This document shows, piece by piece, positions 53,419 through 57,856 of a DNA stretch of 64,000 nt. The stretch covers positions 91,477 to 155,476 of the IMG/VR virus record IMGVR_UViG_3300010998_000001; one strand, written 5' to 3'. Every line of letters starts with the position of its first letter. Within the stretch, counting starts at the first letter, position 1. The translations under genes were made by a program, and so were the position numbers. This DNA is from a virus (taxonomy: Duplodnaviria; Heunggongvirae; Uroviricota; Caudoviricetes). Under the pieces are notes generated by a model. That model was not told the DNA's origin. It ran no database searches and saw nothing but the letters and a program-made list of their open reading frames with translations.

Positions 53419-54465
53419 ATGAATATGGGAGATTTTCAAAAACTAATTGATTTTGAAAACCTTTATAACTCTTATAAAGTATCTCTCAAAGGCAAGGGAC
53501 AGAAATCAGGTGCGATCAAATTTAAAGTTATGGCGCTTGAAAATCTGTGTGTTATGAAACGCCAGTTGGTAGAACATACATACAAGATTTCTCCGTATTC
53601 TGAGTTTATAGTGACCGAGCCAAAACGAAGGGTGGTCAAATCAGGTTCTTTCCGAGATAAGGTTCTTCAACATTGCCTATGCGATTATGTCTTATTACCG
53701 AAGATGAAAGATATTTTCATCCAAGATAATTATGCGGGTCAAATAGGCAAGGGAACTTTATACGGGTTGGATCGTTTGTCAGAAAATCTAACTCATTTTT
53801 ATGGCGAATATGGTTGTGAAGGATATATATTGAAGTGCGATATTGCCAAGTTCTTCTATAATATCAATCATGACTTGATGAAAAAATGTATCAAGAAATA
53901 CTTTGAAGATAAAGACATTCGTTGGGTATGTAATCTATTCATAGATAGCGTTGATGGAGATGGCTTACCGTTAGGTAATCAATGCAGTCAAGTTTTTGCG
54001 CTGATGTATCTTAATGGTTTAGATCATTTCATCGTAGAAAAGTTAGGGTGTAAGTATTATGGTAGATATATGGATGATTTTTATTTATTATCGAATGATA
54101 AAGAATATCTCAAAGATTGTCTGAAACAAATCGAGTCTTTTCTGGCTAAATTAAAGTTGACATTAAATAACAAAACAGAGATTGTGCCGATGCGCAAGGG
54201 TATAAGGTTTTTGGGTTTTCACACATATATTACTGAGCAAGGTAAAATCATTCGTAAACTGACGGGTGACAATAAAAGACAGATAAAGAAGAAGCTTCGC
54301 AAGAAAGCGGCCCTTGTCAATAAGGGAAAAATGACAAGAAAGCAATTTAATGAATCGTATTATTCGTGGCGTAATCATGCCTCGCATGGGAATTGTTATA
54401 AGCTGATATGCGAAATGGATAAATATGTAGAATCATTATTTAGAACGGAGAGTAAGATAATATGA
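53419..54465 (+). CDS. DGR reverse transcriptase
   Basis: RT motifs: FRDKVLQ, GLPLGNQCSQ (the DGR-type [LIV]GxxxSQ instead of QGxxxSP), and YGRYMDDFYLL (YMDD). Confidence 0.85.
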   Translation: MNMGDFQKLIDFENLYNSYKVSLKGKGQKSGAIKFKVMALENLCVMKRQLVEHTYKISPYSEFIVTEPKRRVVKSGSFRDKVLQHCLCDYVLLPKMKDIFIQDNYAGQIGKGTLYGLDRLSENLTHFYGEYGCEGYILKCDIAKFFYNINHDLMKKCIKKYFEDKDIRWVCNLFIDSVDGDGLPLGNQCSQVFALMYLNGLDHFIVEKLGCKYYGRYMDDFYLLSNDKEYLKDCLKQIESFLAKLKLTLNNKTEIVPMRKGIRFLGFHTYITEQGKIIRKLTGDNKRQIKKKLRKKAALVNKGKMTRKQFNESYYSWRNHASHGNCYKLICEMDKYVESLFRTESKII

Positions 54466-55526
54466 TTAAATATTTTGATAAACAGAATTGCTTTGTAGAA
54501 TTGTTTGATCCTACGAATGGTTATTATGCTCGCACGGGAGTATTGAATGACAAGGGTGAAGATACTGGTGTTGATCCTTTCATGCGCGATTTTCCGGCGC
54601 TCATCGACATTGGTATTATGCAGAGCTGCGTTTGTGCGAAGCGTTGCAAAGTGGACTGTTACCAGAAAGCGATTGATCGGTTTGGTGCGAATATGAGCCT
54701 TGATGATTACAAGGAAATCATGCGCCAGTCAAAGGGTAAAGTATTTCAGGTTGCGCTTGGCGGCGCTGGTGATCCTGATACACATGAGAACTTCGGCGCT
54801 ATTCTGAAAATCACCAGAGAACATAACATCGTTCCTAACTTTACAACCTCTGGTATTGCGTTCTATTCAGATAAGGCAAGGCTGTGTAAAGACTATTGCG
54901 GAGCCGTGGCCGTAAGCGAACATTGGGCTGATTATACGGGAAACGCTATCAAGAATCTTTTGGATGCTGGCGTAAAGACAAACCTTCATTATGTGCTGTC
55001 GAATAAGAGTATCGACGATGCTATTGCGCGGTTGCGCGAAGGCTGTTTCTATGATGGTATCAATGCCGTCGTATTCCTTCTTTATAAACCGATTGGCCTT
55101 GGCAAGCGAGAGAATGTTCTGCGGCCAGATGATCCGAAGTTGAATGAATTTTTCGAGCTGGTGGATAAGGGCGGCTATGATTTCAAGATTGGATTTGATA
55201 GCTGTTCATGTCCTGGTATCGTCAACAAAACATCGAATGTTGATTTGCAGAGCATCGACTTCTGTGAAGGTGCGCGGTACTCCATGTATATCGACGCTCA
55301 TATGAACGCCATGCCTTGTTCCTTTGGCAACCAGGATGAAAAGTATTTTGTAAGTCTGCGCGACTTTACGATTGAAGAGGCATGGCATAGCTATGTGTTC
55401 GAGGATTTCCGTAGGCATCTGCGCGATTCCTGCCCTGGATGTGCAAATCGTTATGGTTGCGCTGGCGGTTGTCCAATTTGCCGCGATATTGTTCTATGTA
55501 ATGCGAAAGAGAAGGTTCTTGTATGA
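54462..55526 (+). CDS. Radical-SAM-like enzyme with a C-terminal SPASM-type Cys cluster
   Basis: N-terminal Cys cluster SCVCAKRCKVDC (non-canonical spacing). GGxGDP at ALGGAGDP. C-terminal CPGCANRYGCAGGCPIC, which fits CX2CX5CX3C. Confidence 0.45.
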   Translation: MIKYFDKQNCFVELFDPTNGYYARTGVLNDKGEDTGVDPFMRDFPALIDIGIMQSCVCAKRCKVDCYQKAIDRFGANMSLDDYKEIMRQSKGKVFQVALGGAGDPDTHENFGAILKITREHNIVPNFTTSGIAFYSDKARLCKDYCGAVAVSEHWADYTGNAIKNLLDAGVKTNLHYVLSNKSIDDAIARLREGCFYDGINAVVFLLYKPIGLGKRENVLRPDDPKLNEFFELVDKGGYDFKIGFDSCSCPGIVNKTSNVDLQSIDFCEGARYSMYIDAHMNAMPCSFGNQDEKYFVSLRDFTIEEAWHSYVFEDFRRHLRDSCPGCANRYGCAGGCPICRDIVLCNAKEKVLV

Positions 55527-56164
55527 ATCCATTTCTATTTGTTTTCGGTCTGGCGTTACCTTGGATTATCAGTTTTGTTATTAATGTAATTCAAGAAGCA
55601 ACAAATAATGATGAGGTTGATGAAGATAAGGAAACAAAGTCAACCAATAAAGAACTGTGCCATGATTATGAAAAATATAAGGATGATGCCGATATGATTC
55701 CTTTGACGTTCTCACAGTTTCATTCTTATTATTCACTGAATCCGGCTATGTGGAAGTTGGGGAAGTATTATGCCAAACGTGTTCAAGATGGCGTTACCAA
55801 CAATGACATATGGCGTTATGACGAGCTGTGTTCTCAGTATGGCGAAGATGGTGTTGATGCTGTTTTCAAAAGTAAACGATCTCTGTTTTACTGTATTCAT
55901 TTTGCGACGTTTGAGGATTTTAAAAAGTACAGAAAGTTTATCGCAACAGAAGAACAGCGGATTGCAGATGAAAAGGAACGCGAGCGGCTAAAAAGAGAAA
56001 TGGAGCGTAAGAAGAAACTTACGGTTGCTTTCTTGGAGTCCATTCAGAAAGACATTGATAATATGCGGCAGCTCAGTCAAGACGAATATAACCAGGCGCT
56101 TGATACTGTTTCCAAGATTAAGCAACACGCAGATGAAGTGTATGCCACGCGCACAGCGCATTAA
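55523..56164 (+). CDS. Membrane-anchored coiled-coil protein (213 aa)
   Basis: N-terminal TM helix, then a charged coiled-coil. Confidence 0.4.
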   Translation: MNPFLFVFGLALPWIISFVINVIQEATNNDEVDEDKETKSTNKELCHDYEKYKDDADMIPLTFSQFHSYYSLNPAMWKLGKYYAKRVQDGVTNNDIWRYDELCSQYGEDGVDAVFKSKRSLFYCIHFATFEDFKKYRKFIATEEQRIADEKERERLKREMERKKKLTVAFLESIQKDIDNMRQLSQDEYNQALDTVSKIKQHADEVYATRTAH

Positions 56165-56199
56165 ATAAAATAAAAAATTAATTTGATGGAGAAATAATT

Positions 56200-56486: not shown

Positions 56487-56900
56487 ATGAAAATTCGCAC
56501 AGACTTTGTAACAAATAGTTCTAGCAGCAGTTTTCTTGTGGCATACCGCGAGCCAAATGAAGATAGTAAGTATGCCGCGCTCTATAAGCATCTTCTTGAA
56601 GCTATTATCAAAGCTGAAGGATATGATACAGATGTAGCGATGGTTTTTTATTCCCAAGATGAATTTGATAATTGGATTATTGAAAGTGAATCTTGGTGTG
56701 GCGCAAAAACCATCGAGGATGTTTTTAAGAATTACGGTTATAGTAAAGAACTATATGATAAGGCCCGTCCTTATTTTGAACAAGGGTTTGTTTTATTTAG
56801 AAAAAATATTTCTTATGATGATGTCGCCCTTGTTGACCTCATCGGAAATATTTCCGAGAGTACAGATGATTTTGTAATTTTGGAGGATAGTGAAGCATGA
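56487..56900 (+). CDS. Paralog 1 of the MKIRTDFVTNSSSSSF family (137 aa)
   Basis: Shares its N-terminal 16 residues with the next two ORFs. Confidence 0.55.
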   Translation: MKIRTDFVTNSSSSSFLVAYREPNEDSKYAALYKHLLEAIIKAEGYDTDVAMVFYSQDEFDNWIIESESWCGAKTIEDVFKNYGYSKELYDKARPYFEQGFVLFRKNISYDDVALVDLIGNISESTDDFVILEDSEA

Positions 56901-57442
56901 AAATTAGAACTGATTTTGTAACCAATTCTAGTAGCTCTAGCTTTATCCTGTCGTTTTCTGACGAAGATAGGATTGATGCAGAAGTAAATGATATGCTTAT
57001 GCTGTATGGTGATCCTATCAAGAAGATCGTTTCTCGTGATGCAAGCATAGGACGGAAATTTACCAAGAAAGAAATACTTGACGCGGCAGAAAAGGCCGTG
57101 CCTGTGTTTGGTGAATATGGTATGGTTCGTTTCGATGGCGTAAACGATGAAGGTGTTGTCCATCTGTTGGAAGAATTTTGGTATAAGGCAAAGTGGGAAG
57201 TAGATTGCCATAAAAGATACGGCGGTCATATGTCGTGGTCTGAAACGATGGATTATTTGCGTACTGACGCTGGCCGAGCAGAGATCATGCAGGAGTATAA
57301 AAGCTATTTTAGTAAATTTGAAAAGTATAGTGATGACTGTATCTTTGTCGAGGTAGAGTACGAGGATCATGATGAGATCGGCGCAATGCTGGAACATGAA
57401 ATCCTTCCGTCAAAATGCGTTATCAGTTTTAATCATCATTAA
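56897..57442 (+). CDS. Paralog 2 of the MKIRTDFVTNSSSSSF family (181 aa)
   Basis: N-terminus MKIRTDFVTNSSSSSFIL. Confidence 0.55.
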   Translation: MKIRTDFVTNSSSSSFILSFSDEDRIDAEVNDMLMLYGDPIKKIVSRDASIGRKFTKKEILDAAEKAVPVFGEYGMVRFDGVNDEGVVHLLEEFWYKAKWEVDCHKRYGGHMSWSETMDYLRTDAGRAEIMQEYKSYFSKFEKYSDDCIFVEVEYEDHDEIGAMLEHEILPSKCVISFNHH

Positions 57443-57451
57443 GGAGAGAGT

Positions 57452-57856
57452 ATGAAGATTCGTTCTGACTTTGTTACTAATAGCAGTAGTAGCAGTTTCA
57501 TCATTGTTTCCAAGATTGATCGTTGTGACGAGCTTGAACGGTATATGCGGGAAGAGTTTGGCAAGTATGGTATTCATCTTTTGGATGAGTATGTCAAACC
57601 AATTAGTGAGTGTCAACATACATATAGGGACTATGATAATAAGCTGCGAGAAGTATATGAGCTGAATGGCTGGGACTTTGATCGTTCTGAGATAGTGGAT
57701 ATGGGCCTCGATCCAGAGGATGAAAATAGCCTTGTTTTGGCTGCGCGGTTTTATACCTGGTCTACAGAGGGTGATTCAGACGGCGACGATGCTTGGCTAC
57801 ATGATAAGATTCCGCAGCAGTATCGTATTGATGTTTTTAAATCTGATCCAGATTAA
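57452..57856 (+). CDS. Paralog 3 of the MKIRTDFVTNSSSSSF family (134 aa)
   Basis: N-terminus MKIRSDFVTNSSSSSFII. Confidence 0.55.
   Translation: MKIRSDFVTNSSSSSFIIVSKIDRCDELERYMREEFGKYGIHLLDEYVKPISECQHTYRDYDNKLREVYELNGWDFDRSEIVDMGLDPEDENSLVLAARFYTWSTEGDSDGDDAWLHDKIPQQYRIDVFKSDPD

Follow-up and report, generated by a model that had tools for sequence, protein, structure and literature searches.

An invariant N-terminal tag on unrelated phage proteins accompanies a radical-SAM/SPASM enzyme and recurs beside Avs2-like STAND genes

INTRODUCTION

Why should three neighboring phage genes encode proteins that begin with the same residues and then have nothing more in common, and what is the role of the radical S-adenosylmethionine (SAM) enzyme encoded upstream of them? 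This question is raised by a 64,000-nucleotide stretch of DNA (hereafter, the window) of a virus of the Caudoviricetes, positions 91,477 to 155,476 of IMG/VR record IMGVR_UViG_3300010998_000001. At 54462-57856 of the window, a gene for a 354-aa enzyme is followed by two intervening open reading frames (ORFs) and by three tandem genes whose products share their first 16 residues, which we call the tag. The original prediction, made from the sequence of the window alone, gave the coordinates and lengths of these genes correctly; it described a radical-SAM/SPASM-type enzyme next to three paralogs and suggested a maturase with its substrates, either RiPP-like (RiPPs being peptides made on the ribosome and modified after translation) or protein-modifying, or else a targeting or packaging tag.

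The known substrates of radical-SAM/SPASM maturation are short peptides and, among enzymes, a single class, the sulfatases. Here we describe how the tag and the enzyme are distributed over viral, bacterial and archaeal genomes. We favor, at somewhat better than even chances, the reading that the tag is a portable N-terminal handle that the enzyme binds and covalently modifies, because the enzyme belongs to the SPASM class that modifies peptides and proteins, the invariant N-terminus is predicted to be exposed, the genes are tightly coupled, and one enzyme is accompanied by unrelated clients.

RESULTS

The tag is under selection as a peptide

Tagged proteins 1 and 2 begin with MKIRTDFVTNSSSSSF and tagged protein 3 with MKIRSDFVTNSSSSSF. 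The identical N-terminus that had been predicted for all three genes is thus found in two, and the third differs by one residue (T5S). The consensus at the extreme N-terminus is M-K-[IV]-R-x-D-[FY]-V-T-N-S-S-S-[ST]-S-F, and a degenerate DNA pattern of the tag has three matches in the window, all at the three genes, with 0 expected (100 shuffles). Compared in pairs, the three tags of the window differ in 8-11 of 16 codons (11-16 of 48 bases) and in only 0-1 amino acids, and the differences at Ser codons include switches between the TCN and AGY families. In 249 distinct tagged gene starts from elsewhere, all six Ser codons are used at each Ser position. As the codons diverge while the residues remain constant, selection acts on the peptide; the codon divergence also rules out a recent duplication, a gene conversion or a nucleotide-level element as the origin of the tag.

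When a profile of the 30 N-terminal residues was compared with 1.84 billion cluster representatives, 9,745 tagged proteins were found at E<=0.001, and in nearly all of the best 150 of these 9,745 representatives the match begins at residue 1. No Pfam model covers the tag in about 30 tagged proteins scanned, and no NCBIfam model covers it in the three of the window. The only family matching the tag region in the Pfam, NCBIfam, PHROGs and PADLOC scans is phrog_7397, of unknown function. A full-text literature search for the letters of the motif returned no relevant paper on the tag, and GenBank phages gave no match by distant blastn or by tblastn with tagged protein 2, searches in which the low-complexity filter may mask the Ser run. 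The system of tag and enzyme is essentially undescribed.

The tagged proteins are unrelated beyond the tag

Viral contigs (loci L001-L112 and the window) supplied 231 distinct tagged proteins. Outside the tag these form at least 25 body clusters without a BLAST link, and the three proteins of the window represent three different clusters. Profile-profile comparison of the tagged bodies gave hhalign probabilities below 10%, on which ground we reject a common origin of the three bodies; "three tandem paralogs", as they had been called, does not hold. All 231 proteins are acidic, with a median isoelectric point (pI) of 4.6, a median net charge of -12 and none above pI 6. K2 and R4 of the tag are basic residues set against these acidic bodies.

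The length of tagged proteins varies from 82 to 1,814 aa. Some of the large ones (up to 1,814 aa) carry TIR, BRCT, HIRAN or BspA-type LRR domains (L152, L178, L201, L217, L116 and L168), and in one group a hydrophobic, membrane-like segment directly follows the tag and is itself followed by long coiled coils. The large tagged proteins that lie on genome-binned contigs are probably phage-derived, judging by sequence, since the enzyme identity there is 75-99%. No sulfatase family of Pfam or NCBIfam matches the tagged proteins.

For tagged protein 2, a structure was predicted from an alignment of 64 homologues. The body, whose fold opens with strand S13-F20, is modeled with a predicted local distance difference test (pLDDT) score of 91. 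Scores for residues 1-10 stay under 50, from which we predict that the invariant N-terminal part is exposed as a free peptide. Within the body, this family conserves VEVEY-DH, LEHEILP and a C-terminal (F/I)SHH.

The enzyme has a radical-SAM/SPASM fold

The radical-SAM/SPASM identity of the 354-aa protein had been set in advance as a test of the prediction, and it was borne out. The predicted structure is a radical-SAM/SPASM fold whose closest known structures are peptide and protein maturases; it matches SuiB, anSME and PqqE, their C-terminal domains included, and a partial (beta/alpha)6 TIM-barrel core with a GGE-type SAM-binding motif is present. A PDB-sequence profile search likewise matched the SPASM regions of PqqE, anSME and BtrN. 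In the family searches, Pfam gave a single match, to SPASM, at 24.2 bits against a cut-off of 21.5 (residues 268-327), SPASM and TIGR04085 together match residues 268-341, and NCBIfam gave weak partial matches to PqqE, MftC and tungsten-cofactor maturases, far under the cut-offs. A large protein collection holds 3,697 homologues of the enzyme, the best 120 at 63-95% identity, and many of them have precomputed Radical_SAM and SPASM matches.

The motifs that had been pointed out in the enzyme are largely as described. The C-terminal CX2CX5CX3C cluster is C324-C337, and the seven SPASM cysteines (C268, C286, C324, C327, C333, C337 and C346) are invariant in the aligned homologues; they agree with the seven- or eight-Cys motif by which the SPASM subfamily holds two auxiliary [4Fe-4S] clusters. 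The GGxGDP box reads GGAGDP and aligns with GG-GNP of a clade found in cellular genomes; G100, G101 and G103 are invariant and D104 nearly so (at least 90%) in 26 divergent homologues. The N-terminal Cys cluster is present too, and 59 close homologues all keep C56, C58, C62 and C66, but it is not the canonical radical-SAM CX3CX2C: the spacing is C56-x-C58-x3-C62-x3-C66, which can be read as CX3CX3C or CX5CX3C. A second phage clade has CX7CX6C, and only in the cellular clade does the canonical CX3CX2C ("CERECDFCY") stand at the aligned position. As three cysteines are kept at the cluster site in every clade, an Fe-S cluster and activity in the phage enzymes remain plausible on the sequence evidence.

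The enzyme also has a conserved N-terminal extension of about 50 residues, modeled as a three-stranded sheet (strands 2-6, 11-15 and 22-24) with no helices after it, which is a candidate substrate-binding element. In the cellular clade, the enzymes match prokaryotic-viperin hidden Markov models over the radical-SAM core (PADLOC pVip, E 2e-11).

A near-identical contig from an otherwise identical phage (L235, JGI 3300011005) has the enzyme gene broken into ORFs of 227 aa and 74 aa at 7083-8442; the 213-aa ORF is frameshifted too, and the three tagged genes are intact. The break is either a natural loss or an assembly error.

Tag and enzyme are coupled across genomes

Loci were gathered by the tag alone, which yielded 107 IMG/VR viral contig stretches and at least 120 GTDB genome stretches. 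The viral analysis comprised 113 loci, the window included, with up to six tagged genes per stretch. A homologue of the enzyme is present in 76 of the 113 viral-analysis loci and in 97 of 120 among the genome matches listed, and the loci that lack it are mostly cut just upstream of the tagged genes. When at least 2.5 kb of flank was available on both sides, the enzyme was found in 23/24 viral and 18/23 genome loci, that is, in 41/47 (the genome part again among the matches listed), and the co-occurrence suggested as a check of the prediction was thus confirmed; tagged genes widespread in the absence of the enzyme, which would have refuted the prediction, were not seen. The single viral exception with full flank (L029) belongs to a contig on which the enzyme is encoded at a distance of about 20 kb (L112).

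Enzyme and tagged genes lie on the same strand in all loci with a homologue but one. Two layouts recur. In the first, one to six tagged genes come after the enzyme gene, often with 0-50 nt in between; in the other, which occurs in genome records of bacteria and archaea, a single tagged gene (about 120-142 aa) stands immediately upstream of the enzyme. In the loci with genes listed, no protease or transporter gene lies between or adjoins the enzyme and tagged genes. Across loci, the identity of the enzyme to the window protein falls from 99% to 35%, and the tag is nearly unchanged. Position 14 of the tag is Thr in the cellular clade, with its canonical CX3CX2C enzyme, and almost always Ser in the phage clades with expanded Cys spacing; this is a modest sign that tag and enzyme clade co-vary.

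The pair is part of cellular cassettes with Avs2-like STAND genes

In a distant clade (35-43% enzyme identity), the tag and enzyme pair lies inside a conserved cassette. Its order is a metallo-beta-lactamase-fold gene (in some), a STAND NTPase, an untagged protein, the tagged protein, the enzyme and, in Firmicutes, an M1E1E6-like protein of 305-320 aa. Hosts are Arenibacter troitsensis, Sporomusa sp. KB1, Methanoculleus chikugoensis, Desulfitobacterium hafniense, Oscillibacter sp. 1-3, metagenome-assembled genomes of a Verrucomicrobiia and an Arcobacteraceae member, and Agrobacterium tumefaciens, on plasmid pAt Ach5, where the cassette runs from WP_038496262 to WP_038496256, the tag reads MKLKMDFVSNSSSTSF and the STAND gene is annotated "SMEK domain-containing protein". 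The STAND NTPase of the cassette (780-1,050 aa) matches PADLOC Avs2 at E 9e-32 to 7e-21 in the four loci tested (L160, L142, L123 and L121), with weak Pfam matches to NACHT/NPHP3_N, and three further loci (L236, L237 and L239) have the same gene order by inspection.

The tagged protein of the cassette is about 135 aa long and ends in Trp or Tyr. The gene upstream of it encodes an untagged protein of 121-156 aa (L236, 6249-6614; L237, 6603-7004; L239, 6594-7004; L160, 3892-4287; L123, 5673-6143), which, compared by eye, appears to be a paralog of the tagged body that lacks the tag (for example, SRSEFFEMMSIKPGGLAAQL versus TRDSFFEAIGASDEGPIGEL). A six-frame scan of five loci (L160, L142, L123, L121 and L226) found the tag on the small protein only and not on the STAND proteins. 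Both the scale of the family, about 10^4 tagged protein clusters, and its link to an immune system go beyond what the sequence of the window alone could show.

The pair is a sister of Avap1/Avap2

The Avs2 operon of Klebsiella pneumoniae (KpAvs2) has two accessory proteins of unknown function, Avap1 (radical SAM) and Avap2 (DUF6375-like by HHpred), and about 5% of Avs2 homologues carry them; Avap1 is needed against some phages and dispensable against one, it produces no viperin-type nucleotides, and Avap2 binds the STAND protein with or without phage (Bechon et al. 2024, Nat Commun, PMC11564622). This arrangement is shared by our cellular clade, in which a radical-SAM gene and a partner of about 130 aa likewise stand beside an Avs2-type STAND NTPase. 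In the window, by contrast, no STAND family of Pfam was found among the five plausible ORFs of at least 450 aa (a sixth is an antisense overlap), and the STAND neighbor was seen in the distant cellular clade. Phage-borne copies or multi-client arrays are not mentioned by Bechon et al. 2024 (PMC11564622).

As a proxy for the KpAvs2 type we used a locus on Vibrio parahaemolyticus plasmid pLH80-1 (L241; NZ_CP068629.1, 12162-26755), which encodes a radical SAM protein and a "DUF6375 family protein" and also has a large gene that an IS3 element splits; brxL lies next to these genes. The locus is probably an operon of the KpAvs2 type that the insertion sequence has inactivated. Over the core, the Vibrio Avap1-type enzyme is homologous to the window enzyme (hhalign probability 93.6%, E 2e-7), but it is 319 aa long and lacks the SPASM cysteines. 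Its partner begins with MKIWQGYGAEHS, lacks the DFVTNSSSSSF tag and compares with the tagged family at an hhalign probability of 0.3%. DUF6375 (PF19902) had no match in 21 tagged or neighboring small proteins, even at E<=10. We therefore reject the identification of the tagged protein, or of its untagged neighbor, with DUF6375/Avap2; on this sequence evidence, the tag and enzyme pair is a sister of Avap1/Avap2 and not the same thing. The "Ophion" radical-SAM defense system was likewise rejected as a match, being viperin-related and unrelated to the pair.

The pair differs from other radical-SAM/SPASM systems

The substrate motif of sulfatases for anSME/AtsB, (C/S)-x-P-x-R, is absent from the tag MKIRTDFVTNSSSSSF. 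The clients of the present enzyme, unlike those of anSME, are no sulfatases and are unrelated in fold, and the enzyme has the additional N-terminal sheet and, in phages, non-canonical Cys spacing. RiPP maturases (SuiB, SkfB, CteB, PqqE and ChlB) act on short precursors with a conserved leader and a variable core, which are cleaved and exported, whereas here the 16 conserved residues stand at the very N-terminus of proteins of full size, one of which is modeled as a confidently folded domain. The clients are no short precursors, and in the loci with genes listed no protease or transporter gene adjoins the pair; the tag is probably recognition site and reaction site in one.

A further parallel is the system of FxSxx-COOH peptides and the radical-SAM/SPASM enzyme FxsB in STAND and vWA-MoxR conflict systems (Haft and Basu 2011; Kaur et al. 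2020, eLife, PMC7159879). It shares with the present family variable proteins that carry a short conserved terminal motif, a radical-SAM/SPASM enzyme and an NTPase conflict setting (PMC7159879). The FxSxx motif, however, is C-terminal and released by a peptidase, whereas the tag is N-terminal and has no linked peptidase; FxsB was not among the NCBIfam matches of the window enzyme. New relative to radical-SAM/SPASM maturases are thus the invariant N-terminal tag, the full-size unrelated clients, the non-canonical cluster spacing in phages and the link to STAND immunity.

DISCUSSION

A proposed handle for covalent modification

A maturase with tagged substrates, as first proposed, is the best supported reading, and of its two versions the sequence evidence fits "protein-modifying" better than "RiPP-like". 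From the fold, the tag with its selection as a peptide and the genomic coupling across domains of life, we infer the binding, the chemistry and the biological role as follows. Any protein starting with the tag would be a client of the enzyme. The first 10-12 residues, exposed and unstructured, would bind to the enzyme, where they might add a strand to its conserved three-stranded N-terminal sheet, and the enzyme would then cleave SAM reductively; the 5'-deoxyadenosyl radical would take a hydrogen within the invariant T9-S15 and leave a covalent change, which might be a Ser oxidation (as with anSME) or a C-C or C-O crosslink to F7 or F16 (as with SuiB-type enzymes). By analogy with these enzymes, the T-N-S-S-S-x-S-F stretch is the likely site of the reaction.

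In bacteria and archaea, the enzyme and its one tagged protein of about 135 aa would serve as accessory genes of Avs2-like STAND anti-phage cassettes. Phages would have kept the enzyme with one to six small acidic clients, three in the window, and these are presumably, from their context and composition, takeover or counter-defense proteins that need the mark to be active, to be stable or to bind a partner. Tentatively, and with rather less than an even chance of being right in full, a radical-SAM/SPASM enzyme writes a new covalent mark on the tag of some 10^4 protein clusters in a system that began in Avs2-like STAND immunity and was then captured and expanded by phages to arm acidic counter-defense or takeover proteins.

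If this is true, the Ser run would bear a post-translational modification of a new kind, and regulation in phage-host conflict would gain a new layer. For a single enzyme to serve many unrelated proteins of full size by way of an invariant N-terminal tag would be a new use of radical-SAM chemistry, and would probably involve a new modification. Bacterial NLR-like immunity has radical-SAM accessory proteins that await an explanation, for which the link to Avs2-like STAND genes offers a concrete hypothesis, and the phage arrays of tagged acidic proteins form a catalogue of candidate anti-defense or host-takeover factors of large gut and rumen phages. A 16-residue tag that an enzyme can address could also serve as a tool.

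Several observations weigh against modification of the tag by the enzyme. The window enzyme lacks the canonical CX3CX2C, and catalysis in the phage clades is therefore an assumption. A classical RiPP recognition element (RRE, a PqqD-like winged helix) was not identified among the Pfam and NCBIfam matches of the enzyme, whose conserved N-terminal sheet is not followed by helices. A few tagged genes lie far from the enzyme, at 6.8 kb (L004) and at about 20 kb (the contig of L029 and L112). Finally, in KpAvs2 Avap1 is dispensable against one phage and Avap2 acts by binding the STAND protein (PMC11564622), and a non-covalent role for the partner is therefore possible.

Alternative roles of the tag

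The last of these points leads to the alternative that survives best, although we consider it unlikely: the tag would be a non-covalent docking motif for the enzyme or for a shared hub such as the STAND protein, and the enzyme would act on a nucleotide or small molecule or would have become a scaffold in phages. The viperin matches of the cellular enzymes over their core and the non-canonical Cys spacing of the phage clades fit this reading, as does the binding of Avap2 to the STAND protein irrespective of phage (PMC11564622).

Tandem genes in an accessory region, with a common N-terminus and unrelated acidic bodies, recall the layout in phage T4. The T4 internal proteins IPI, IPII and IPIII are encoded in tandem and share an N-terminal capsid-targeting sequence (CTS) of about 10 residues, with bodies otherwise unrelated; the CTS is removed by the prohead protease and is not known to have an enzyme partner. 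A capsid-targeting, packaging or export signal with a merely syntenic enzyme, the alternative named in the original prediction, is nevertheless very unlikely, because, unlike the CTS, the tag occurs with the enzyme in the chromosomes of bacteria and archaea and on a plasmid, beside Avs2-like STAND genes and outside any phage setting (Agrobacterium pAt, Desulfitobacterium, Oscillibacter, Sporomusa, Arenibacter and Methanoculleus). The coupling to the enzyme also holds down to 35% identity, and the tag has no hydrophobic signal-peptide core.

An amyloid-like signaling motif of the NLR/STAND type, through which tagged proteins would co-aggregate with a receptor, is highly improbable. The amyloid motifs of fungal and bacterial NLR proteins offer an analogy, and the N/S-rich composition followed by a hydrophobic strand (S13-F20 in the model) and the association of the tag with STAND NTPases in cells agree with it. 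Such motifs, however, are common to receptor and effector, whereas the six-frame scan of the STAND cassettes placed the tag on the small protein only; the obligate radical-SAM partner and the phage loci without a STAND gene would be left unexplained as well. We give equally little credence to a single fast-evolving enzyme superfamily in which the tag would supply both the first strand and the active-site loop, with true paralogs and an unrelated radical-SAM enzyme, for although the tagged protein 2 family has metal-site-like conserved residues (VEVEY-DH, LEHE and the C-terminal HH) and S13-F20 belongs to the sheet of the modeled body, residues 1-10 are predicted to be disordered, the body families are unrelated by profile comparison, and the tag is found ahead of transmembrane segments as well as of TIR, BRCT, HIRAN and LRR proteins.

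Gene order and other features of the window

The features of the locus are collected in Table 1 with their neighbors. The ORFs of 52181-57856 run head to tail on the + strand, from the genes of a diversity-generating retroelement (DGR) through the enzyme and the two intervening ORFs to the three tagged genes.

Table 1. Positions of the enzyme, the tagged proteins and neighboring features in the window
Feature	Position	Strand	Remarks
RlaP	48131-49156		
Nucleotidyltransferase, CCA-adding/poly(A) polymerase family	49157-50428		
Band_7/SPFH protein	51320-52180		
DGR target gene (DUF6273 / phrog_9958)	52181-52840	+	Variable region 52718-52800
DGR Avd gene	52828-53208	+	
DGR template repeat	53234-53316		88% identical; 9/10 differences at template adenines (read off the alignment)
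DGR reverse transcriptase	53419-54465	+	Stop overlaps enzyme start
Radical-SAM/SPASM enzyme, 354 aa	54462-55526	+	ATG overlaps stop of DGR reverse transcriptase (ATGA)
Cys cluster C56-V-C58-AKR-C62-KVD-C66	54627-54659	+	Presumed radical-SAM [4Fe-4S] site; non-canonical spacing
GGAGDP box, residues 100-105	54759-54776	+	Position of the radical-SAM "GGE" SAM-binding motif
SPASM auxiliary-cluster domain, residues 268-346	55263-55499	+	C268, C286, C324-x2-C327-x5-C333-x3-C337, C346
Intervening ORF, 213 aa, untagged	55523-56164	+	N-terminus hydrophobic, C-terminus coiled-coil-like
Intervening ORF, 94 aa, untagged	56200-56484	+	Conserved only sporadically
Tagged protein 1, 137 aa, pI 4.3	56487-56900	+	Tag 56487-56534; body cluster 1; stop overlaps next start (ATGA)
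Tagged protein 2, 181 aa, pI 4.9	56897-57442	+	Tag 56897-56944; body cluster 0
Tagged protein 3, 134 aa, pI 4.4	57452-57856	+	Tag 57452-57499 (T5S variant); body cluster 7

Two small ORFs had been predicted between the enzyme and the tagged genes, and both are there, although 213 aa is hardly small. The 213-aa ORF has no family match and was seen, among 241 loci, only in copies of the same phage; beyond such copies, the 94-aa ORF has a single homologue, at 39% identity, on a related IMG/VR contig that the overlapping loci L001 and L050 cover. With conservation across the 241 loci absent or sporadic, we rejected both as conserved parts of the system. Directly 3' of the last tagged gene, a perfect sigma-70 consensus promoter (TTGACA, 17 nt, TG-n-TATAAT; 12/12) lies at 57887-57915, before a tRNA array, and since these come next, the tagged genes form the end of a transcription unit.

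The DGR directly upstream of the enzyme gene is complete (52181-54465), and upstream of it, at 48131-52180, lies an RNA-repair-like gene set. Downstream of the tagged genes there are two tRNA arrays, with tRNA regions at 58036-59207, 59991-60078 and 62382-63848. A tRNA at 58685-58756 with anticodon TCA (ARAGORN "SeC"; Rfam tRNA, 37 bits) could be an opal suppressor, although TGA serves as a stop in the ATGA overlaps of the operon of enzyme and tagged genes. The ARAGORN call at 58036-58111 has a 4-base anticodon, and the tRNA at 59991-60078 was found by Rfam only.

A 914-aa ORF on the - strand (10436-13180) has a match to PF05183, the family of eukaryote-type RNA-dependent RNA polymerases (E 5.5e-12), and may be a YonO/crAss-like single-subunit RNA polymerase. 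The GC skew changes sign at about 20000-22000, where the cumulative skew has its minimum and the GC content dips to 0.34, and this change marks a coding-strand switch or a replication landmark.

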